Of a stretch of 64,000 nt of DNA, positions 1,684-58,318 are shown piece after piece. Both the position numbers and the translations under genes were made by a program. Location: assembly GCF_013315695.1 (NCBI RefSeq), contig NZ_CP054353.1. One strand, 5' to 3'. The notes below the pieces were generated by a model. It saw nothing but the letters and a program-made list of their open reading frames with translations, did not search any database and was not told the origin of the DNA. The stretch comes from Escherichia coli (GTDB taxonomy: Bacteria > Pseudomonadota > Gammaproteobacteria > Enterobacterales > Enterobacteriaceae). Within the stretch, counting starts at the first letter, position 1; every line of letters begins with the position of its first letter.

Positions 1684-4128
1684 TTACACCTTTTCAACCT
1701 GAACAAGGTTTGTATGTGACGGATTCCCCTTAGCGAGAGGAGACGGACGTTGAGTGGTCAGTACGTTGATACAACCGCCCTTATCGACACGTTTTGTATC
1801 CGGGTCATACCAGGCACCTTCACCCAGTGCGACCACACCCGGCATCATTCGTGGCGTCACTTTCGCCTCAATATGAACCTCACCACGATCGTTAAAAATC
1901 CTGACTTTATCGCCGTTGTTGATACCGCGTTTTTGCGCATCAAGCGGGTTGATCCACATTTCCTGACGGCAAGCTGCTTTCAGCACATCAACGTTGCCGT
2001 AAGTTGAGTGAACGCGAGATTTATAGTGGAAACCCGTAAGCTGCAGCGGATACTGTTTGTTCAGCGGATCCTGATAACTTTCAAAGCCCGGCGTGTAGAT
2101 CGGCAGTGGATCGATCACATCACCTTCTGGCAATTCCCAGGTCGCGGCAATGTCAGCCAGCGCCTGCGAATAAATCTCAATTTTCCCCGATGGCGTGGTC
2201 AGTGGATTTGCCTGCGGATCTTCACGGAAAGCTTTATAAGCAACGTGATGCCCTTGTGGGTCGCGCTTTTTAAAGATCCCCTGCTTACGGAACTCTTCAA
2301 ACGTTGGCAGTTCAGGAATCGCTTCCCGCGACTGGGCATACAGATGCCGCATCCACTCTTCCTGGGTACGGCCCTCAGTAAACTGTTGCTCAACGCCAAG
2401 ACGTTTTGCCAGTTCGCTGGTCATTTCATAGATGGTCTTACATTCAAAGCGTGGTTTAATCACCTGATCGTTGAAAATCACGTAAGACATATTCCCGCAG
2501 GATGCATCCAGCGCAAAGTCCATCTGTTCGGAAGCGGTGCAGTCAGGCAGCAGGATGTCAGCGTATTTCGCCGATGAGGTCATGTGGCAGTCGATAACCA
2601 CAATCAGCTCGCACTTCTTATCATCCTGAAGGATTTCATGGGTACGGTTGATTTCAGAATGCTGATTAATCAGGCAGTTACCGGCATAGTTCCAGATCAT
2701 TTTGATCGGCACATCCAGCTTATCTTTCCCGCGCACACCATCACGCAGCGCTGTCATTTCCGGGCCACGTTCAATGGCATCGGTCCACATAAACATCGAA
2801 ATGCTGGTCTGGATCGGGTTTTCGAGGGTCGGCATACGGACAAACGGTAAGCTGTATGAACCTTCACGCGCGCCGCTGTTGCCTCCGTTAATACCAACGT
2901 TACCGGTCAGAATCGCCAGCATCGAGATAGCACGGGTTGCGATTTCACCGTTAGCGTGACGCTGCGGGCCCCATCCCTGGCTGATAAACGCCGGTTTGGT
3001 ACTACCGATTTCACGAGCCAATTTGATGATTTTGTCTGCCGGAACACCAGTGATTTGCGAGGCCCATTCCGGCGTTTTAGCCACGCCATCTGGCCCTTCA
3101 CCCAGAATATAAGCTTTATAGTGACCATTTTTCGGCGCACTGGCTGGCAGTGTTTTCTCGTCGTAGCCAACGCAATATTTATCGAGGAATGCCTGATCCA
3201 CCAGGTTTTCGGTGATCATGACATACGCCAGACCGTTAACCAGTGCGGCATCTGTTCCCGGACGAATAGGGATCCACTCATCTTCGCGCCCGGCACCGGT
3301 GTCGGTATAGCGCGGATCGATGATGATCATGCGAGCATTAGATTTCTGGCGCGCCTGTTCAAGATAGTAAGTCACCCCACCGCCACTCATTCGCGTTTCG
3401 CCAGGGTTATTACCAAACAGCACTACCAGTTTACTGTTTTCGATATCCGACGGGCTGTTACCATCTGCCCAGCCGCCGTAGGTATAGTTCAAACCTTCCG
3501 CAATTTGCGCGGAAGAGTAGTCACCGTAATGGTTCAGATAACCGCCGCAGCAGTTCATCAGGCGAGCGACCAGGGTATTTCCCGGCGGCCAGGAGCGGGT
3601 CATGGTGCCGCCCAGCGTACCGGTACCATAGTTCAGATAGATAGACTCGTTGCCGTACTCTTTGATCAGGCGCTGCATATTGGTCGCGATGATGTCGTAG
3701 GCTTCTTCCCAGCTAATGCGCTCGAATTTGCCTTCACCGCGCGCCCCGACTCGTTTCATCGGATATTTCAGGCGGTCCGGATTGTAGACACGGCGACGCA
3801 TGGAACGCCCACGCAGACAGGCGCGCACCTGGTGCAGGCCGTCATAGTTGTCATCGCCGGTATTATCCGTTTCAACATATTTAATTTCACCGTCCACAAC
3901 GTGCATACGTAGCGGGCAGCGGCTACCACAGTTAACTGTACAGGCGCTCCAGATTACCTTTTCGTCTGACTTTGCCGGAAGGGCACTATCAACAGCGTGC
4001 GCAATCCGACTAAAAGGTAATGTTAATGCGCTGCTGGCCATTGCCAGGCCGCCGATCGCTGTCGTTTTTACCAAACCACGGCGACTCACCTCAGCAGCCA
4101 ATACCGCATCAGGGATTTTCGTTTTCAT
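1684..4128 (-). CDS. dmsA: DMSO reductase catalytic subunit DmsA (molybdopterin oxidoreductase, Tat signal)
   Basis: 814 aa, N-terminal twin-arginine signal (SRRGLVKTTAIGGLAMA), molybdopterin oxidoreductase motifs. Confidence 0.95.
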   Translation of the reverse strand: MKTKIPDAVLAAEVSRRGLVKTTAIGGLAMASSALTLPFSRIAHAVDSALPAKSDEKVIWSACTVNCGSRCPLRMHVVDGEIKYVETDNTGDDNYDGLHQVRACLRGRSMRRRVYNPDRLKYPMKRVGARGEGKFERISWEEAYDIIATNMQRLIKEYGNESIYLNYGTGTLGGTMTRSWPPGNTLVARLMNCCGGYLNHYGDYSSAQIAEGLNYTYGGWADGNSPSDIENSKLVVLFGNNPGETRMSGGGVTYYLEQARQKSNARMIIIDPRYTDTGAGREDEWIPIRPGTDAALVNGLAYVMITENLVDQAFLDKYCVGYDEKTLPASAPKNGHYKAYILGEGPDGVAKTPEWASQITGVPADKIIKLAREIGSTKPAFISQGWGPQRHANGEIATRAISMLAILTGNVGINGGNSGAREGSYSLPFVRMPTLENPIQTSISMFMWTDAIERGPEMTALRDGVRGKDKLDVPIKMIWNYAGNCLINQHSEINRTHEILQDDKKCELIVVIDCHMTSSAKYADILLPDCTASEQMDFALDASCGNMSYVIFNDQVIKPRFECKTIYEMTSELAKRLGVEQQFTEGRTQEEWMRHLYAQSREAIPELPTFEEFRKQGIFKKRDPQGHHVAYKAFREDPQANPLTTPSGKIEIYSQALADIAATWELPEGDVIDPLPIYTPGFESYQDPLNKQYPLQLTGFHYKSRVHSTYGNVDVLKAACRQEMWINPLDAQKRGINNGDKVRIFNDRGEVHIEAKVTPRMMPGVVALGEGAWYDPDTKRVDKGGCINVLTTQRPSPLAKGNPSHTNLVQVEKV

Positions 4129-4298
4129 AATGGCTCACTCAAGCTTGCTCACGATTGATTCCAGTAACAAACCGTATTGTGTAATTATTTCTATAGCAGG
4201 TCGCTATATAGGATTGTATATATCGAATAATTTGAAAATCAAAGAGATAGGTAGATTTTCACTCGAAAGTAGTATTACGTGTAAGTGAGGAGTAATTA

Positions 4299-4312
4299 TT
4301 GTTCGGTATCAA
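4299..4312 (-). promoter_or_regulatory. FNR-type binding site upstream of dmsA (TTGATaccgAACAA on minus strand)
   Basis: Matches TTGAT-N4-ATCAA-like FNR consensus about 170 bp upstream of the dmsA start; dmsABC is FNR-activated (established). Confidence 0.6.
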
Positions 4313-4322
4313 AGGGAGACAA

Positions 4323-4338
4323 AAAAAGCGCCCGCAGG
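4323..4338. repeat. attL core: 16-bp direct repeat aaaaagcgcccgcagg
   Basis: Identical 16-mer at 43150-43165 next to the serS terminator; brackets the prophage with integrase adjacent. Confidence 0.65.
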
Positions 4339-4427
4339 AGATTTAACACACCTTACTCCCCTTGATGATTTACTTATTTTTCAATGACTAAATCAAAACA
4401 AGGGGAGCAAATTAACGCAAATTACAA

Positions 4428-5420
4428 CTAGTCAATGGACAGTTTATGGACACTATCAGCCAGCGGATTAAAGCTAATCGCATCCTGTAAAAAGTCCGGT
4501 GAAAAATGCGCATACGTCATCGTTTGTTGAATCGTGGCGTGCCCAAGGATTCGCTGTAACGTAACGATATTTCCGCCGTTCATCATGAAATGCGTGGCGA
4601 ACGTGTGACGCATAACGTGAGTCGCCTGACCTTTGGGTAAATCCGGTTTCACCTCCTGAAGGATATCCCGAAAACGGATGTAATCAGCCTGGTACAATAG
4701 CCCGGTTTTTCGGGTTTTTATCAACGAAAGCACCGTATCAGAAACAGGAACCGCGCGGGATTTTCCATTCTTTGTGTTAAAGAACATTACGCGGTTACCA
4801 ACGATATGCTCACCACGTAAGCCAGCTGCTTCCCCCCACCTTGCGCCAGTGGAAAGACACAGAACAGCAACACGACGCGCATCCCCCTCGAGTCGTTCAA
4901 GCAGCCGATCAATCTCATCATCTGAAAGAAAGGCCATTTCTGTATTCCTGACCTTGAGCTTACGTATTCCACGCACCGGGTTTTCGTTATGGAAAACCTC
5001 CGCATCAATCAACGCAGTAAACATTGCAGACAAGGCGCACAAATCACGATTAACACTGGAGGGCATTAATCCGGCCTGTAATTTGTCTGAACGATACCCG
5101 AGCATAAACTTTCGCGTCATCTCACTGGCGCGGGGGTCCCTCATCTCACGGTTTATTTTTTCCAGCCTGACCCTGTAAGTATCCCCGTAAGGCTGATTCC
5201 GGCCATCAAGCACCCACCAGGCATCTATCAGTTCGGATAACCGACGCTGATCAGCTGGCTTGGCCTGCCACGGTTTATCGTGGAAATTCTGCAAAACATA
5301 CCTTTCAAACTCCTGTGCCTTTGACTTCAGGGTAAAAATCTTACGGATCCGCTTTCCTTCCGTCCCTTGCGGTCTTACATCAACCTTATAACGCCCGTCT
5401 TTGAGTTGCTTAATCGACAT
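4428..5420 (-). CDS. int: tyrosine integrase, P2 Int-like
   Basis: 330 aa from ATG with GGAGGGG RBS; strong similarity to P2 Int as recalled (LSTGARWGEAA, HxLRHTFATHF, GHATIQQTMTYAHF). Confidence 0.92.
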   Translation of the reverse strand: MSIKQLKDGRYKVDVRPQGTEGKRIRKIFTLKSKAQEFERYVLQNFHDKPWQAKPADQRRLSELIDAWWVLDGRNQPYGDTYRVRLEKINREMRDPRASEMTRKFMLGYRSDKLQAGLMPSSVNRDLCALSAMFTALIDAEVFHNENPVRGIRKLKVRNTEMAFLSDDEIDRLLERLEGDARRVAVLCLSTGARWGEAAGLRGEHIVGNRVMFFNTKNGKSRAVPVSDTVLSLIKTRKTGLLYQADYIRFRDILQEVKPDLPKGQATHVMRHTFATHFMMNGGNIVTLQRILGHATIQQTMTYAHFSPDFLQDAISFNPLADSVHKLSID

Positions 5421-5489
5421 GATTAGCCCCTCCAACGGATGAATCAGCCGTACACTCTCTACGGGATGAAACCCGCTCGATGTACAGCG

Positions 5490-5831
5490 TTAGCCAGCAT
5501 TGCGACGAGATCGGGGTGATTTTTGGGTAATGCCGATTGAAACCTGATCGCCCTCCGACTGAATGGAGCCATCAAGAGAGAGAGCCGGAGCTATCTGACC
5601 GGCAGCAGGCATTGTCTTATCTTTTATTAGCCACATCATGTATTTTTCAAACCGATCAACTTGGAGAACCATCTCAACAATTTTGGCTCTGGCGCTTTTT
5701 TGCCCTGATTCATAGTTCCTTATGGCAGCTAAAGACAACCCCGTAATATCCGCAAATTCCTTTTGCGTTAGCCCTTCAGCCTTGCGTATTTGACGTAGCT
5801 TTTTTGCATAGTCTATTGACAAGATAACCAT
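5490..5831 (-). CDS. immunity repressor, P2 C-like HTH protein
   Basis: HTH (LTQKEFADITGLSLAAIRNYESG) and C-terminal GQIAPAL motif resembling P2 C as recalled; divergent from the early operon. Confidence 0.75.
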   Translation of the reverse strand: MVILSIDYAKKLRQIRKAEGLTQKEFADITGLSLAAIRNYESGQKSARAKIVEMVLQVDRFEKYMMWLIKDKTMPAAGQIAPALSLDGSIQSEGDQVSIGITQKSPRSRRNAG

Positions 5832-7000: not shown

Positions 7001-7264
7001 ATGAATAAAGAGAAATCTCCGGATTATTTTGTGAAACGATTACAGGATGCAACAGAGTCAATGTTGATTGCCCTGAATAATTACTCTTACGAAGAGGCCG
7101 TAACGGTACTTGAGTGGATAAAGGAAAAAATAACGGAAGACAGCATCGTCAAGATGCAGAGTATCAACATCTCCCGTGACAAAACATTTCCACTGCGAAT
7201 ACCGCCAAAACGACGACTGGTTTACTCGATACCAGTCTCAATGCAGTGCAAATTGCCGAAATAG
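7001..7264 (+). CDS. early-operon hypothetical protein (87 aa)
   Basis: ATG at 7001 with AAGGA RBS; ORF-track frame 6887..7264 trimmed. Confidence 0.55.
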   Translation: MNKEKSPDYFVKRLQDATESMLIALNNYSYEEAVTVLEWIKEKITEDSIVKMQSINISRDKTFPLRIPPKRRLVYSIPVSMQCKLPK

Positions 7265-9178: not shown

Positions 9179-9406
9179 ATGGTCGCCATCCTGAATGTGT
9201 GTTGCTGCCCCCCCCTGAACGTGGAAAGAAAAGCCCGCGCATCGCTGCGTTTATTCCGCGACGGCGTGCGGAATTTTTCACGCATAAAACCCCACGACTA
9301 CCTGGTAATAAGAATCGGTTTTCGCTGGCGATTGCTGAGCAAAAACAACGGGGCGTCATGGGATTTATTAACGCACGAAACCTATAACAAAGAGGCCGCG
9401 TTATGA
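9179..9406 (+). CDS. hypothetical small protein (75 aa) between exonuclease and Dam
   Basis: ATG with GAGGTG RBS; stop overlaps the dam start (ATGA); odd composition (CCCPP). Confidence 0.35.
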   Translation: MVAILNVCCCPPLNVERKARASLRLFRDGVRNFSRIKPHDYLVIRIGFRWRLLSKNNGASWDLLTHETYNKEAAL

Positions 9407-10347
9407 GCAAAGAACTGTTATCCGGCACGCCGCTTAAATGGGTGGGCGGAAAAAGTCGCATCATGAACACACTGAAGGCGCATCTGCCAGAAGCAGACTG
9501 CCTGGTTGAGCCGTTTGTGGGTGGCGCATCGGTATTCATGAACACCAGTTACAAGCGTTACATCCTGGGTGATTCCAATGGTGCGCTGATTAATTTCTAC
9601 CGGCAAGCCAGGGACAACACCGACAGCCTGATCGACGAGGCGAAAACCCTGTTCCTGAACCACAACAACAGGGGTGACTATCTCATCATTCGCGAAACCT
9701 TTAACGCAGAGAATCATGCCTTCCTGAACAGCAGAACGGGAATAAGCGACCGCCGTGAACTGCGACTGGCCGCCATGTTTTTGTACCTGAACCGACACAG
9801 CTTTAACGGTTTGTTCCGCGTGAACGGAAAAGGCGATTTTAACGTGCCTTTCGGCTGCTACCGCAAGCCCTACTTCCCTGAGCGTGAAATCCGCGCATTT
9901 GCAGACAAGGCAAACAGCACCCGAACGCTGCTTATCCACGCAGATTTTAAGGATACGCTGAACTCTGCCAGTCACCTGTTCGGCATGGGCAACACGCTTT
10001 GCGTGTACTGCGATCCCCCTTACCTGCAATTCAGTGGCCGGGACAATTTTACCGCCTACGGAAAACCATTCGATGAAGACGAGCACGTTCGTCTGAGGGC
10101 AGCGCTCGACCGCCTTTCACAGGAAACGGGCGGCATGACCAGCATCACCATCTCCAATTCCGACACACCGGAAACACGACGCATTTATCGGGGTTACCGG
10201 ATGAACTGCATACAGGCACCACGAAGCGTTGGCGCAAGAACCCGGGAATCAGCACCGGAGGTTATCGCCACCCTGAGATGCATCACATCCGCCTTATCAA
10301 CGGTTCGCACTTCTGCGCCACGAACATGGAAGAAGTACGCGTGCTGA
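9403..10347 (+). CDS. dam: DNA adenine methyltransferase, Dam family
   Basis: PLKWVGGK, LVEPFVGGASVF, FLYLNRHSFNGLFR and DPPY motifs; about 35 extra C-terminal residues versus E. coli Dam. Confidence 0.85.
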   Translation: MSKELLSGTPLKWVGGKSRIMNTLKAHLPEADCLVEPFVGGASVFMNTSYKRYILGDSNGALINFYRQARDNTDSLIDEAKTLFLNHNNRGDYLIIRETFNAENHAFLNSRTGISDRRELRLAAMFLYLNRHSFNGLFRVNGKGDFNVPFGCYRKPYFPEREIRAFADKANSTRTLLIHADFKDTLNSASHLFGMGNTLCVYCDPPYLQFSGRDNFTAYGKPFDEDEHVRLRAALDRLSQETGGMTSITISNSDTPETRRIYRGYRMNCIQAPRSVGARTRESAPEVIATLRCITSALSTVRTSAPRTWKKYAC

Positions 10348-10375: not shown

Positions 10376-10726
10376 ATGGCAGTGATTTATATCGCCGGTC
10401 CCATGACCGGATGCAAAGACCACAACAGGACGGCATTTTGCGTGGAGGACCTGAAACTTCGGTGCGCCGGAAACATCGTTCTTAATCCTGCCGTACTGCC
10501 TGACGGATTAAGCCAGCAGCAGTACATGAGTATTTGTATTCCGATGCTCATGTGCGCCGATGCCATTTACTTACTGGATGGATGGGAAGAGTCCGCTGGC
10601 GCACGGGCTGAGTACGCAATGGCGCTCAAACTGAACATGCATGTGTCATTCCCGGAAAACCGGGCAGCCGGCGAAACCGTCGCGCAGCTGCTTCACAAAT
10701 CAAAAGCCGCACAGGCGACTGAGTAA
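10376..10726 (+). CDS. DUF4406 / nucleoside 2-deoxyribosyltransferase-like protein
   Basis: N-terminal MAVIYIAGPMTG signature and size typical of this fold (from memory); GGAGG RBS. Confidence 0.55.
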   Translation: MAVIYIAGPMTGCKDHNRTAFCVEDLKLRCAGNIVLNPAVLPDGLSQQQYMSICIPMLMCADAIYLLDGWEESAGARAEYAMALKLNMHVSFPENRAAGETVAQLLHKSKAAQATE

Positions 10727-11164
10727 CCGACCGGAGATCGAAACATGATTGCGCGCAGAGCTACCAACCGTCTCACAGGCTTTATTCCAGGCAAGGTTGA
10801 TCATGCACTCCATCACGGGGCTGTCACTTTCCTCAACAAAGGAGAGGCGCGCAATCATGCATTCCGGGGTGAGCATGTGGCGCTGGCTAATCAGTCTTTG
10901 ATAGCTAAGCGCCTGCCATTCAGCCTTTTCAGCTCTGATAGAAAGAGAGGAAGCCATGACCTGCCACACCAGAAAGAGCACCACACTGGCGAAAACAAAC
11001 GTTGCGCTGTCGCAAAAAATGAATGCGGCAACAATCGCAAGGAAAGCGCTAATCCTCAGAACCAAGGAAGCGCGACGGTGGAGAAGGCTTGTCATGTGTT
11101 CAAGCCAGTAGCTGTACCACAGGTCAAAAAGAATTTCGTAATCAGAAGGGAGCTTATCACTCAT
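10700..11164 (-). CDS. membrane protein (about 154 aa, two predicted TM helices) transcribed opposite to the early operon
   Basis: ATG at 11164; MSDKLPSDYEILFDLWYSYW, TM segments LVLRISAFLAIVAAFIF and FVFASVVLFLVWQVMASSL; 3' end overlaps the convergent DUF4406 gene. Confidence 0.5.
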   Translation of the reverse strand: MSDKLPSDYEILFDLWYSYWLEHMTSLLHRRASLVLRISAFLAIVAAFIFCDSATFVFASVVLFLVWQVMASSLSIRAEKAEWQALSYQRLISQRHMLTPECMIARLSFVEESDSPVMECMINLAWNKACETVGSSARNHVSISGRLLSRLCGF

Positions 11165-11347
11165 CAGAAACACCCCGCGTATGCAGACAATCACCAGTTG
11201 CCAGGTGATATTAATTCGCAACATTCTAACCACATCAGCACGCAACACAAAAACCGCTTGCCAGCGCTCGTCGTGTCAGGTTACATTTCCGCTGCACCTC
11301 ATAAAACGGGTGCCGGGTTTCGCAGCCTGCTGACAACCAAAGCGCAC

Positions 11348-11368
11348 AACCGCGCCAGCGGTTTTTTT
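11348..11368 (+). terminator. intrinsic terminator-like hairpin plus T-run (aaccgc-gcca-gcggtt-ttttt) in repeat copy 1
   Basis: 6-bp GC-rich stem followed by T7, nested in outer symmetry cgcacaa...ttgtgcg. Confidence 0.5.
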
Positions 11369-11547
11369 GTGCGTACTGTATTGCCACGTCTTTTTCGCGT
11401 CAGAATTATGGCGGGGCGTACGGGGCCGACTTCGGTCGGGCCGGGTTCTTTGCTAGCCGGTACTGCGAACCTCGTACGTCTCGCCACCCACAGTTTCGCA
11501 GCTCTGGATGGTGAGTTTTCACAACTTACTAGCAAAGAGGCCACACC

Positions 11548-11769
11548 ATGGCAAACCGCAAGCAACAGCGCGCCCGCGCTGAGCGTCTTCACATCCGCAG
11601 CGAAATCAACCGCAGACTTTTCCGCGCAACACGCGTCGCGCAAATCATGCATATCAACATGCTGCATGAGCGCACGCACGCACTATCAAACCGTTACTGC
11701 GCTGCTGTCTTCAGCTATCTCGCCGAAGATCTGGCAGAACTGCAAAGCCTCATCAACCAGCACCGATAA
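11548..11769 (+). CDS. small basic protein (73 aa, MANRKQQRARAERLHIRSEINRR...), repeat copy 1
   Basis: ATG with AAAGAGG RBS; identical copy at 12377-12598. Confidence 0.5.
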   Translation: MANRKQQRARAERLHIRSEINRRLFRATRVAQIMHINMLHERTHALSNRYCAAVFSYLAEDLAELQSLINQHR

Positions 11770-11837
11770 ACCACATCCGGAAGCTATCCCACACCTGCAC
11801 GCGGGAGGCTTCCGCACGTCTGTTACCGGAGGTTCTC

Positions 11838-12009
11838 ATGAAGAGCGTTAAGGGACTTTCAGATATTCAGGACTTCTTTAACTGGATGTGGGCGGTGGAT
11901 CCCCTGCTGGCTTCCCGCCTGAACAACTGGCACGACTATTACCGCCGCGCCTGTAAACAGGCTGCCCGCAGCGTCACCACATACGGGGCTTTCTCCTTCA
12001 CCGTTGACT
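11838..12009 (+). pseudogene. truncated 5' duplicate (about 57 codons) of the 138-aa gene, broken at the duplication junction
   Basis: Same RBS and first 57 codons as 12667-13083, then reads into repeat copy 2. Confidence 0.55.
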
Positions 12010-12176
12010 ATGCAGACAATCACCAGTTGCCAGGTGATATTAATTCGCAACATTCTAACCACATCAGCACGCAACACAAAAACCGCTTGCCAGCGCTCGT
12101 CGTGTCGGGTTACATTTCCGCTGCACCTCATAAAACGGGTGCCGGGTTTCGCAGCCTGCCGACTAGCAAAGCGCAC

Positions 12177-12197
12177 AACCGCGCCAGCGGTTTTTTT
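12177..12197 (+). terminator. same terminator-like hairpin in repeat copy 2
   Basis: Identical sequence at +829. Confidence 0.5.
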
Positions 12198-12376
12198 GTG
12201 CGTACTGTATTGCCACGTCTTTTTCGCGTCAGAATTATGGCGGGGCGTACGGGGCCGACTTCGGTCGGGCCGGGTTCTTTGCTAGCCGGTACTGCGAACC
12301 TCGTACGTCTCGCCACCCACAGTTTCGCAGCTCTGGATGGTGAGTTTTCACAACTTACTAGCAAAGAGGCCACACC

Positions 12377-12598
12377 ATGGCAAACCGCAAGCAACAGCGC
12401 GCCCGCGCTGAGCGTCTTCACATCCGCAGCGAAATCAACCGCAGACTTTTCCGCGCAACACGCGTCGCGCAAATCATGCATATCAACATGCTGCATGAGC
12501 GCACGCACGCACTATCAAACCGTTACTGCGCTGCTGTCTTCAGCTATCTCGCCGAAGATCTGGCAGAACTGCAAAGCCTCATCAACCAGCACCGATAA
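12377..12598 (+). CDS. small basic protein (73 aa), repeat copy 2
   Basis: Identical to 11548-11769. Confidence 0.5.
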   Translation: MANRKQQRARAERLHIRSEINRRLFRATRVAQIMHINMLHERTHALSNRYCAAVFSYLAEDLAELQSLINQHR

Positions 12599-12666
12599 AC
12601 CACATCCGGAAGCTATCCCACACCTGCACGCGGGAGGCTTCCGCACGTCTGTTACCGGAGGTTCTC

Positions 12667-13083
12667 ATGAAGAGCGTTAAGGGACTTTCAGATATTCAGG
12701 ACTTCTTTAACTGGATGTGGGCGGTGGATCCCCTGCTGGCTTCCCGCCTGAACAACTGGCACGACTATTACCGCCGCGCCTGTAAACAGGCTGCCCGCAG
12801 CGTCACCACATACGGGGATTTCTCCTTCACCGTGGACGGTCGTTACCGCGTGGACGTGAAAGGTGATGGTGATGGACTGGGTTTATTTCACATCAACGGC
12901 ACCGACAGTACCGCCATCAGCTGGTCGTCATCAGAGATGGCGCTGGTTCTGGAAATGACAACCCACAGCGTGGCCGTGAAAGGTATATACACCGCAGAAG
13001 GTTTTATCGGCGAATACCAGCGCCTTCTCGTGCTGTACCGCGCGGCGTTTCAGGTGGCAACTGCCGGGGAGTGCGACGCATGA
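12667..13083 (+). CDS. hypothetical protein (138 aa) immediately upstream of and coupled to gene A
   Basis: ATG with GGAGG RBS; stop overlaps the A start (ATGA). Confidence 0.6.
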   Translation: MKSVKGLSDIQDFFNWMWAVDPLLASRLNNWHDYYRRACKQAARSVTTYGDFSFTVDGRYRVDVKGDGDGLGLFHINGTDSTAISWSSSEMALVLEMTTHSVAVKGIYTAEGFIGEYQRLLVLYRAAFQVATAGECDA

Positions 13084-15593
13084 GCGACCATAACGCACAA
13101 CTGGCGTACCCGTGGAACGCCCCGCTACCGGTTATCGATCCTGAAACGTTCGGCAGAGCACAGCCAACCGCATTACGCCAGGCCATTCAGAGCTACATCA
13201 ACGAGGACATTCGCATTGATGCCAGACTGGATGAAGAAACCGTCGCCTTTCTGACAACCACAGACGAAGGGAAGCGAATTAATTCGCACCTTCACCACAA
13301 CGAAGAGCGTCGGATCAGACTGGAAAAACTGGCGCGGCACAAACGCGAGAATCCGCCCACGGTGGTATCGGAAGCCATGGCAGAACTTCGCGCCCTGCCC
13401 TCGTTTCTTGGCAACGCGCTCATTCGTGATCTGGCGCGTTTAAACCGCAAACAGCAAAGCGCCCGCCATGAAGGCGTGAAAAACAACAATACACACGTGG
13501 CTGATAACTTTGTTCGCCGTGGACTGCGCACACGCCTGAAACGCATCGAACAGGTGAATGAATGCTTCGCCACGACGGCATTCAAAGCCACCGCAGCACG
13601 CCATCGCCTTGATGAATTACTCATGCTGCCACAACTCAACCGTGATCAAATTCAGCGCCTTGCCACACTAACGGCGGCGGCATTTTCCACCGAACTGGAA
13701 CGCATATGTGATGAAGTTACTGAGCGGACAGGAAAAGGCGACGATAACCTGTTTACCTGGTTGCTGACTTACCAGCAGCTGGCGCGCATGGCAATAAAAC
13801 TGGGCGTGAACCCACCATACTGGCCGTCACTCGAGATCAGACGTGACCGCCGCACGGCACCAGACCCTGAACTGGTACCGGGCGCGGTAATGCGTATCAC
13901 CTGCGCCACCTGGTGGAACAACCAGCTGCGCCACCTCGCTGATCTCTGGCGGGAGGAATTACTGCGTGCCGCCGGAAGAGTATCGCGCAAGGCATCCCCC
14001 TACATCAGCCATGAGTCACTCCAGGAATTCCGGGAGAAACGCCAGCGCACCCGTGATTTTCTCAAAAGCTGGGACATTGAAAACGAAGACGGTGAACGCC
14101 TGAGCCTGGAGGACGTGTACTGGTCAGGGCTGGGGAATCCGCGCAACCGCCGCAACGAGATGATGGCCTGCGTCAGAGGGATGGAACAGGTCGCCGAATC
14201 GCGTGGTGACTCCGCGTTCTTCGTGACAGTGACCTGCCCTTCCCGCTTTCACAGCGTAAACGAGGACGGCAGCCTGAACCCGAAATACAACGGTGCCACC
14301 GTGCGCGATGCCAGTGATTATCTGGTTTACGACGTCTTTGCAGCTGCAAGAAAAAAACTCAACAAAGAAGGCCTGAGCTGGTACGGGGTGCGCACCGTTG
14401 AGCCACACCATGACGGCACACCGCACTGGCACATGCTGGTATTCACCGCCCCGGACAATGAAGAACGCATCATTGAAATCATGCGTGACGCAGCAATCAA
14501 ATCAGATCGCGCAGAACTGGGGAATGATATTTCTCCGCGCTTCAAGTGCGAAAAAATCGACCCGGCAAAAGGCACACCGGCAAGCTACATCGCAACCTAT
14601 ATTGGCAAGAACCTGGACGCCAGCACCTTTCACGACAATGACCCGAAAACCGGCAAACCTTACGCCGATAAAGAATCGGGAAAAACCATGGCGGAAACCG
14701 TGGAAAACGCCATTGCCTGGGCGAGTCTCCACCGCATCCGGCAGTTCCAGTTCTTCGGTATCCCGCCCCGCCAGGTATGGCGTGAACTCCGCCGCCTTGC
14801 CGGACAAATGGAGCGTAACCCCGCATCACCGAAGCGCCTGGACCATGACGACATTGACGCCATTCTGGCCGCCGCTGACGTGGGGTGTTTTGCCACCTAC
14901 ATCAACCGTCAGGGCGGCGTGCTCATTCCACGCAACCTGTACCTGATCCGCACCGCATACGAAACCGCAGATGAGGCCAACGACTACGGCGAATTCCCGC
15001 AGCGCATCTACGGAATTTGTGCCCCGTCGCTCGGCGAGCGCTACACCATCTGCACCCATCCGGACGAGTGGAAACTGGTCAGAAAAGAAGCGAAAGCCGA
15101 CAACAGCACGGACGAGGATTTTGACGTTGGGGGCGGCTTCGCCGCACCTTGGACTCGTGGCAATAACTGTCGCCATGATGAAAAAACAGACACCGAAGAG
15201 GGTAAAAACCCACCACCGGAAACCAGGAAAGAACAAAAACTGGTCGTCCCGGAAGGTGATTTGGGCGAGTGGTTAAGGTCACTGACCCCCACAGAGCGAA
15301 AACAACTCACCAGGCAGCTGAAAGATGCGCCATCTGACACAAAAACCGTGAAAACCGGCGGCCCCACCACGCCCGATGACGTCATACATGTGCGTACCGC
15401 ATTGCCGCTGGCTGACGTCACCACCACCGTGATCAAGTCGGCACTGAGCACGACGGGCGAGGAGCTGCACAGTGGCGCGGCACTTTCCGTACACAGAGGT
15501 GCACGCGTTCGCCTGCCTGACGGGCGGATTGTGCACTGGGATGAGAAATCACGAAGCCTGGTGGCAGCAGATCAACCGGAGGTGAACCCATGA
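13080..15593 (+). CDS. replication initiation endonuclease, P2 gpA-like (HUH rolling-circle initiator)
   Basis: 837 aa; GTPHWHMLVF H-hydrophobic-H motif; size and position as P2/186 A. Confidence 0.88.
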   Translation: MSDHNAQLAYPWNAPLPVIDPETFGRAQPTALRQAIQSYINEDIRIDARLDEETVAFLTTTDEGKRINSHLHHNEERRIRLEKLARHKRENPPTVVSEAMAELRALPSFLGNALIRDLARLNRKQQSARHEGVKNNNTHVADNFVRRGLRTRLKRIEQVNECFATTAFKATAARHRLDELLMLPQLNRDQIQRLATLTAAAFSTELERICDEVTERTGKGDDNLFTWLLTYQQLARMAIKLGVNPPYWPSLEIRRDRRTAPDPELVPGAVMRITCATWWNNQLRHLADLWREELLRAAGRVSRKASPYISHESLQEFREKRQRTRDFLKSWDIENEDGERLSLEDVYWSGLGNPRNRRNEMMACVRGMEQVAESRGDSAFFVTVTCPSRFHSVNEDGSLNPKYNGATVRDASDYLVYDVFAAARKKLNKEGLSWYGVRTVEPHHDGTPHWHMLVFTAPDNEERIIEIMRDAAIKSDRAELGNDISPRFKCEKIDPAKGTPASYIATYIGKNLDASTFHDNDPKTGKPYADKESGKTMAETVENAIAWASLHRIRQFQFFGIPPRQVWRELRRLAGQMERNPASPKRLDHDDIDAILAAADVGCFATYINRQGGVLIPRNLYLIRTAYETADEANDYGEFPQRIYGICAPSLGERYTICTHPDEWKLVRKEAKADNSTDEDFDVGGGFAAPWTRGNNCRHDEKTDTEEGKNPPPETRKEQKLVVPEGDLGEWLRSLTPTERKQLTRQLKDAPSDTKTVKTGGPTTPDDVIHVRTALPLADVTTTVIKSALSTTGEELHSGAALSVHRGARVRLPDGRIVHWDEKSRSLVAADQPEVNP

Positions 15594-58100: not shown

Positions 58101-58188
58101 GGTGAGGTGTCCGAGTGGCTGAAGGAGCACGCCTGGAAAGTGTGTATACGGCAACGTATCGGGGGTTCGAATCCCCCCCTCACCGCCA
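58101..58188 (+). tRNA. serW: tRNA-Ser (anticodon GGA)
   Basis: 88 nt GGTGAGGTGTCCGAGTGG...GGTTCGAATCCCCCCCTCACCGCCA with long variable arm; anticodon loop cctGGAaag. Confidence 0.92.
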
Positions 58189-58238: not shown

Positions 58239-58318
58239 CTGCCTGTACGGCAGTGAACGGTATAAAAATCGAGTTTTTCTTTCGGTTGGCTTTCTAAGCT
58301 GCCTGTACGGCAGTGAAC
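58239..58318. repeat. two copies of a 20-bp hairpin-forming motif (ctgcctgtacggcagtgaac) 60 bp apart
   Basis: Exact direct repeat in the serW-clpA intergenic region, each able to fold (ctgcc-tgtac-ggcag). Confidence 0.6.

Follow-up and report, generated by a model that had tools for sequence, protein, structure and literature searches.

A tandemly repeated IsrK-C4 RNA-immunity cassette in a P88-like prophage of Escherichia coli

This work describes an 829-bp direct repeat in a 64,000-nucleotide stretch of an Escherichia coli chromosome (NCBI RefSeq assembly GCF_013315695.1, contig NZ_CP054353.1), referred to here as the window. The two units of the repeat lie head to tail in a P2-like prophage that is, by its gene content, P88-like (Xuanwuvirus, Peduoviridae). 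Each unit matches a small RNA of the IsrK family and an antisense RNA of the C4 family, followed by a gene for a 73-residue protein. We consider it highly probable that the repeat is real and inherited, having arisen by tandem duplication of an IsrK-C4 RNA-immunity cassette together with the gene that the cassette would control. On every feature that can be tested in sequence, the cassette belongs to the IsrK-C4 immunity family, which includes P4 seqA/CI and P1 c4. The parts of the cassette are known; tandem arrays of it appear to be undescribed.

A preliminary description of the window had recognized the near-identical duplication, and the bounds determined here lie one base to the left of the 11181-12838 that it gave (Table 1). 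Between the copies there are 6 mismatches (11278, 11331, 11335, 11337, 11989, and 12005, numbered as in copy 1), corresponding to 99.3% identity, and a near-identical tandem repeat with a period of 829 bp is far beyond chance. Tandem Repeats Finder made no call for this repeat, as the period exceeds 500. The features that had been listed for each copy were all recovered, namely a terminator hairpin, three TTGCCA hexamers (at 11198, 11258, and 11381, each also at +829), GC-rich stems with a UUCG tetraloop, and an open reading frame (ORF) for a basic 73-residue protein. The junction between the units shows no microhomology (GAC/TAT) and, again as described, truncates a gene for a 138-residue protein, which is cut after codon 57.

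The RNA genes were identified with Rfam covariance models, and the isrK and C4 models both matched in each copy. The proposal that the region encodes small RNA was thereby borne out; the RNAs are not new, as isrK and C4 are curated Rfam families. A transcript of ~70 nt with ends at 11368 and 12197 had been guessed, and these coordinates agree exactly with the predicted 75-nt IsrK RNAs, each of which includes an intrinsic terminator hairpin followed by a T-run. The predicted fold of IsrK could not be distinguished from shuffled sequences (z of -0.9 and -0.6), and the evidence for IsrK is therefore the covariance model, the terminator, and the specificity boxes described below, not folding energy. 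For C4, the RF01695 match is full-length in both copies and agrees with the minimum free energy (MFE) structure, in which a 17-bp outer stem surrounds the UUCG hairpin and a second hairpin (MFE of -47.6 kcal/mol; z = -4.75 against shuffles). The folding and covariance analysis that had been suggested as a check recovers a conserved structured RNA, with covariation of the boxes across 126 modules. The tRNA-like stem is followed by ACC, the sequence-visible part of a family trait in which RNase P would release a stable C4 of ~77 to 80 nt. A tRNA or tmRNA reading of the stem-loops was rejected, as ARAGORN gave no matches there. Gathering-level matches to both Rfam families were also obtained in all relatives checked.

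The specificity of this family is set by short boxes. Box b' of C4 is complementary to box b2 across the Shine-Dalgarno sequence of the 73-residue protein gene, box a' is complementary to a2, and the a1/b1 boxes within IsrK constitute a second copy of this target. In copy 2, every box matches C4 perfectly. The same holds in copy 1 except for b1, which matches at 7/9 positions and is a foreign, B4-type allele; the predicted pairing energy of C4 is accordingly -16.1 kcal/mol with IsrK-1 and -24.8 kcal/mol with IsrK-2. Box typing was performed by sliding match on 126 related modules from IMG/VR and E. coli, yielding 13 a-types, 22 b-types, and 31 distinct combinations. Self-consistency, defined as a 7/7 fit of both a1 and a2 to a' together with a fit of ≥8/9 of both b1 and b2 to b', was observed for 110/126 modules. 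In a set of eight related modules, a change in one box is accompanied by changes in its other two copies, and cognate box sets outscore non-cognate sets. For cognate pairs, predicted duplex energies lie between -19.4 and -26.2 kcal/mol; the range for non-cognate pairings within one array is -8 to -21 kcal/mol.

Each cassette comprises, in order, a putative promoter, IsrK with its own terminator, C4 (~80 nt, with its tRNA-like outer stem), the a2/b2 leader, and the 73-residue protein gene. By homology with P4 (seqA/CI/seqC), P1 (a1b1/c4/a2b2), and Gifsy-1, C4 would be cut from transcripts that read through the IsrK terminator, and its b' and a' boxes would pair with b2 and a2, masking the ribosome-binding site of the 73-residue protein gene. 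The untranslated RNA would then be terminated, so that neither the lysogen nor a superinfecting phage of like specificity would express this anti-repressor-like gene. The a1/b1 target mimics in IsrK could pair with C4 and modulate the silencing. By gene order, the 138-residue protein gene and the replication gene A, which is the last gene downstream of the cassettes, would probably be silenced as well. The suggestion in the preliminary description that the terminator and structured leader attenuate A is thus retained in part: gating of downstream genes, including A, is plausible by P4 homology, but a stand-alone attenuator is not what was found, as the terminator is that of IsrK.

By sequence, the 73-residue protein is homologous to epsilon, the derepression protein of P4. 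It matches the Pfam Derepression family (PF25738) over residues 10 to 65 with an E value of 1.8e-6 and aligns with P4 epsilon in BLAST at 32% identity over 50 residues (E value of 8e-8), and its homologue in P88-type phages is annotated as "derepression protein." The trait of the epsilon family, binding and inactivation of a P2 C-type repressor, is putative for this protein; the prophage repressor gene (5490-5831, minus strand) belongs to PHROG 147, the same group as the P88 "C protein." Identity of the ORF with P1 Icd was considered and rejected, as BLASTP gave no alignment at an E value of ≤100 and the equal length is a coincidence. In G6/7, an E. coli genome with the same duplication, all 6 nucleotide differences between the cassette copies in this gene are synonymous. 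The 138-residue protein had no match in a Pfam search and no similarity to P4 orf151, and NCBIfam provided no family for any of the five neighboring proteins. Long frames also cross the cassette. One begins at ATG 11408, at the 5' end of C4, and corresponds to the Gifsy-1 "orf45" frame; it spans 11408-11851 (12237-12680 in copy 2), covers the entire 73-residue protein gene out of frame with it, and terminates 11 nt past the ATG of the 138-residue protein gene, such that translational coupling could occur. Another arises at the junction, which fuses codon 57 of the truncated gene in frame with the copy-2 open frame, giving a 280-residue ORF (11838-12680) that runs through IsrK-2 and C4-2.

The assignment of the host element is based on a gpA-type nickase (phrog_91), C- and Cox-type regulators, and P88 gene order, and the module with its neighbors shows 81.7 to 89.2% nucleotide identity to P88, P884B11, and others. 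A 141-bp junction sequence was recovered at 100% identity from 3/5426 complete E. coli genomes, namely G6/7 and G8 from Germany and STEC2018-607 from Switzerland, as well as from metagenome contig OAUP01000013. These junction-bearing genomes are distinct from the window (95.8 to 98.6% identity), and all carriers share the junction-proximal variants 11989 and 12005. As the preliminary description had suggested, the duplication is not an assembly error; the shared junction and variants point to one ancestral event. The internal alleles differ between carriers. G6/7 and G8 have A2B2 in copy 1 and A1B1 in copy 2, STEC2018-607 has A3B1 and A1B2', and the metagenome contig has A2B2 in both copies. 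The window itself has A1 with a B4-type b1 and a B1-type b'/b2 in copy 1 and A1B1 in copy 2. Within these P88-type arrays, the epsilon-like proteins are identical between copies and only the RNA "locks" differ. The MSB1_4I prophage occupies the same site, with a 100% identical chromosomal flank and 99.4 to 99.8% identity across the prophage, and holds a single A2B2 cassette; copy number and allele therefore change quickly.

Because all carriers share one junction, the duplication would have arisen once, by illegitimate recombination, and the specificity boxes would since have been exchanged between copies by recombination. The window offers a likely example of such exchange. Its copy-1 b1 box has the very sequence of b1 in self-consistent A1B4 modules (15 IMG/VR loci), whose IsrK shows no difference from IsrK-1 over 11290-11389. 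Of the six mismatches between copies, three lie in or beside this box and are therefore best read as the relic of another specificity allele. The preliminary description had taken the small number of mismatches as a sign of a real duplication; the duplication held up, but the mismatches are not random drift, as half of them recreate a naturally occurring foreign b1 allele. Copy 1 equals copy 2 on both sides of a 60-bp tract at 11278-11337, and it looks as if copy 1 was homogenized to copy 2 by gene conversion except for this tract, which kept the foreign b1. The prophage now has its C4 gene and its anti-repressor gene in two identical copies each, along with one IsrK whose predicted pairing with the C4 of its own cassette is poor.

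Table 1. Features of the tandem cassettes and adjoining genes (window coordinates; RNA, promoter, and leader entries are predictions)
Feature	Position	Strand	Remarks
Tandem unit, copy 1	11180-12008	+	829 bp; unit and junction recur in L001, L003, and L127
Tandem unit, copy 2	12009-12837	+	829 bp; all copy-1 features recur at +829
Promoter-like site, IsrK-1 (putative)	11258-11287	+	TTGCCA, 18-nt spacer, TACATT; 7 nt upstream of Rfam isrK start
Promoter-like site, IsrK-2 (putative)	12087-12116	+	Copy-2 counterpart of 11258-11287
IsrK-1 sRNA (P4 seqA type)	11294-11368	+	Rfam RF01394, 65.9 bits (gathering score, 50)
IsrK-1 box a1	11319-11325		TTCGCAG
IsrK-1 box b1	11334-11342		CAACCAAAG
IsrK-1 terminator hairpin	11348-11363		AACCGCGCCAGCGGTT, then T-run
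IsrK-2 sRNA	12123-12197	+	Rfam RF01394, 64.3 bits
IsrK-2 box a1	12148-12154		
IsrK-2 box b1	12163-12171		CTAGCAAAG; cognate to C4
IsrK-2 terminator hairpin	12177-12192		AACCGCGCCAGCGGTT, then T-run
C4-1 antisense RNA (P4 CI type)	11404-11491	+	Rfam RF01695, 82.8 bits (gathering score, 45)
C4-1 box b'	11448-11456		CTTTGCTAG; loop of hairpin 2
C4-1 box a'	11463-11469		CTGCGAA; 3' single strand
C4-2 antisense RNA	12233-12320	+	Rfam RF01695, 82.8 bits; sequence identical to C4-1
Target leader, copy 1	11495-11540	+	a2 TTCGCAG 11495-11501; b2 CTAGCAAAG 11529-11537, overlapping Shine-Dalgarno AAGAGG 11535-11540
Target leader, copy 2	12324-12369	+	a2 12324-12330; b2 12358-12366, overlapping Shine-Dalgarno 12364-12369
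73-aa epsilon-like gene, copy 1	11548-11769	+	Isoelectric point 11.3; Pfam PF25738; phrog_3688
73-aa epsilon-like gene, copy 2	12377-12598	+	Protein identical to copy 1
5' fragment of 138-aa gene	11838-12008	+	57 codons; cut by junction
138-aa gene, intact	12667-13083	+	phrog_3237, no assigned function; stop overlaps gene A ATG (ATGA 13080-13083)
Replication endonuclease A (P2 gpA type)	13080-15593	+	phrog_91, E value 1.9e-244; annotated by the Prokaryotic Genome Annotation Pipeline (PGAP) in sister prophages
Divergent 155-aa gene	10700-11167	-	phrog_6315; abuts left end of unit; longer starts reach 11224 or 11248, inside unit

Several other explanations of the repeat were weighed against an inherited duplication of an RNA-immunity cassette. 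Assemblers are well known to go wrong on near-identical repeats, and a single-copy region could in principle have been expanded in this way; given that the copies differ at 6 positions and that the same junction occurs with different alleles in three complete genomes (from two studies) and a metagenome contig, we give this almost no credence. It is also very unlikely that the region codes for protein instead of RNA, with the frames at 10745-11851 and 11838-12680 and that from ATG 11408 representing real proteins. The ATG-11408 frame is open for 147 to 149 codons in ~53/60 distinct epsilon-type modules, the equivalent "orf45" is reported in the literature to be translated in Gifsy-1, and PGAP annotates whole lambdoid units as single Rha coding sequences (CDSs). 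However, the modules compared are closely related, so that an open frame is weak evidence, and the covariance-model matches and box covariation account for the conservation. In addition, between-copy substitutions are synonymous in the 73-residue frame and not in the overlapping one. An intrinsic terminator and a strongly folded leader do precede the 138-residue protein gene and A, as expected of a leader that attenuates A solely in cis with no trans-acting small RNA, the first alternative of the preliminary description, and P4 C4-type RNAs are known from the literature to act on their own transcript too. Such a leader nevertheless seems improbable, since the family is defined by the trans-acting immunity RNAs of P1, P7, and P4, Gifsy-1 IsrK acts in trans according to the literature, and intermolecular pairing would account for the three-way box covariation, in which one partner is a mimic on an sRNA with a terminator of its own.

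A weightier alternative, toward which we lean less but which deserves serious consideration, is that the duplication is a neutral, short-lived by-product of recombination and the odd b1 box a recombination scar. Tandem repeats are easily lost through homologous recombination, which counts in favor of this explanation, as do the rarity of the junction among complete E. coli genomes, the single cassette of the nearly identical MSB1_4I prophage, and the presence of the same specificity in both copies in 2/4 junction lineages. Against it, the junction has been kept in lineages that are 1 to 4% apart in flanking prophage sequence, two lineages retain self-consistent and mutually non-cognate cassettes, and the independent arrays found elsewhere (see below) all differ in specificity between copies, which is unexpected for random transient duplications. 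A number of points also weigh against a functional duplicated immunity cassette in the window. The C4 RNAs of the window are identical, and hence there is no dual specificity. The similarity of the 73-residue protein to epsilon is modest (32% over 50 residues), and transcription, processing, and repression in this phage are putative. A promoter of its own for C4 at a second promoter-like site (11381-11409) is doubtful because the -35 match is lost (TCGCCA) in half of the relatives. Control of A by the cassette is a plausible conjecture from gene order, the ATGA overlap, and analogy with P4. Four lineages do not suffice to decide between homogenization and later diversification as the direction of change. 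As for present effects, a doubled dosage of C4 and of the anti-repressor gene, with an extra IsrK mismatched to its own C4, is most likely, and the duplication may equally be neutral.

A census of 120 IMG/VR loci was carried out with nhmmer. Five arrays were detected: L103 and L039 have three units (the latter at ~385-bp spacing), and L075, L012, and L088 have two each. Two-unit lambdoid arrays were confirmed in the complete E. coli genomes RM10809-3 and EH53; only these two were verified by hand, and the BLAST junction table is not countable, as single modules also give two joined pieces. In 7/7 independent arrays, which comprise two to three cassettes of different specificities in lambdoid and P4-like phages, the copies differ in at least the b box, and unit 3 of L103 is a mosaic with a foreign b2. 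The densest array seen is that of L039 (1197-2051), where three C4 genes ~385 bp apart each have an IsrK-like terminator, distinct a/b boxes, and a P4-like leader. L092 contains two identical isrK-C4 pairs in inverted orientation (1852-2041, plus strand; 7028-7217, minus strand), each near a sok antitoxin RNA match; the arrangement reflects either an inverted repeat of large size or a feature of the assembly. In L128 (2551-3708) and L129 (2797-4547), PGAP gives one "Rha family" CDS to each entire lambdoid cassette, IsrK and C4 included along with the Rha gene; in RefSeq, protein annotations therefore conceal these RNA genes. A literature search on tandem C4/antirepressor arrays and the P88 immunity region, whose coverage was incomplete, returned nothing relevant.

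We tentatively suggest, as a possibility that we presently regard as doubtful, that IsrK-C4 arrays allow temperate phages to stack RNA-immunity specificities, with recombination producing new key/lock combinations and IsrK-1 of the window possibly acting as a decoy. The differing arrays of the relatives support this suggestion, which is unproven. If it is true, a prophage whose two or three C4 RNAs are keyed differently would shut off anti-repressor and replication genes in several types of phage, and its own anti-repressors, behind different locks, would be silenced only by a resident with all keys. Unequal crossing-over and gene conversion within arrays would generate new key/lock combinations as well as mismatched cassettes. 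IsrK-1, which is predicted to pair poorly with its own C4 and perfectly with an A1B4 C4, could then serve as a decoy against A1B4 immunity. The RNAs themselves are textbook P1/P4 biology, and the window adds no new kind of molecule. What it does add is a full P2-like, helper-type phage holding the RNA-immunity and epsilon cassette that satellite P4 uses against P2, which bears on the origin of the satellite's weapon and on the possible mutual silencing of helper and satellite through shared box types. The second addition is that these cassettes occur in tandem arrays, in which the units mostly have different specificities and show clear signs of box exchange. Were such arrays selected, they would represent a simple, natural form of multiplexed, programmable RNA immunity and a ready-made source of orthogonal antisense/target pairs, with 31 combinations seen.

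Other features of the prophage and its surroundings were noted in passing. At ~10272-10278, the window lacks ~480 bp present in all sister prophages (L001, L002, L003, L126, and L127), where this stretch contains the 3' end of a dam methylase gene, an ORF of 237 bp, and the beginning of one of 219 bp; the dam ORF at 9403-10347 is therefore a fusion. Positions 10402-10504, within a DUF4406 (nucleoside deoxyribosyltransferase-like) gene, hold 34 mismatches relative to the otherwise 99.8% identical MSB1_4I prophage and look like a short recombination tract. A full-length match to the enterobacterial sRNA STnc130 (126 bits) at 4219-4353 adjoins an integrase ORF (4428-5435, minus strand), and this flank may be the attachment-site side of the prophage. 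Lastly, a single 28-nt CRISPR-DR4 repeat (58291-58318, minus strand) lies between tRNA-Ser(GGA) at 58101-58188 and a 763-residue ORF on the minus strand and looks like an orphan type I-F repeat.

One of the closest known systems is the P4 immunity region (seqA - CI RNA - seqC ... epsilon ... alpha). In both P4 and the window, the isrK (seqA) model is followed by the C4 (CI) model, the boxes run a1-b1, b'-a', and a2-b2 with b2 on the Shine-Dalgarno sequence of the first ORF, an epsilon/derepression homologue is present, and a replication gene stands at the end of the operon. The isrK/C4 pair is equivalent to P4 seqA and CI RNA, and in P4 this RNA system is what keeps the replication genes from being expressed (PMC3632133, PMC4825925). 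P4 is a satellite with a primase; the element in the window, in contrast, is a complete P2-like phage that encodes a C-type repressor of its own and a gpA-type replication nickase. Its epsilon-like gene follows C4 as the first ORF, a position that another ORF occupies in P4; its 138-residue protein gene is unrelated to P4 orf151; and its cassette is tandemly duplicated. P4 (L125; 8420-8507 and 8615-8692, minus strand) carries box a GTGAGAA/TTCTCAC, the a-type of L075 unit 1 and L129 unit 2, and its leader and first codons (GGCTGCCATCATGGCTAC...) are common to lambdoid Rha cassettes. This sharing hints at exchange and makes cross-talk between satellite and phage cassettes possible.

The immI region of P1 and P7 (c4 - icd - ant1/2) shares with the window the a1 and b1 boxes, a terminator-like hairpin, c4, the a2 and b2 boxes, and a first ORF of 73 codons (in the P1 record), and specificity is likewise set by the a and b boxes. 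Citron and Schuster reportedly established this in 1990 as the basis of P1/P7 heteroimmunity. P1, however, has one cassette, and the 73-residue ORF of the window is not Icd, nor are the downstream genes Ant1/2. The Salmonella Gifsy-1 region isrK - orf45 (STnc1160) - anrP resembles the window in having IsrK with a terminator and read-through, then a processed ~80-nt RNA complementary to IsrK, and then an anti-repressor-like gene. In the published Gifsy-1 model, activation occurs through IsrK in trans and translation of orf45. Gifsy-1 differs from the window in that its cargo is of the Rha/Ant type, not epsilon-like, and is present in a single copy. The same IsrK-C4 arrangement also precedes the Ant/Rha genes of many Stx and lambdoid phages.

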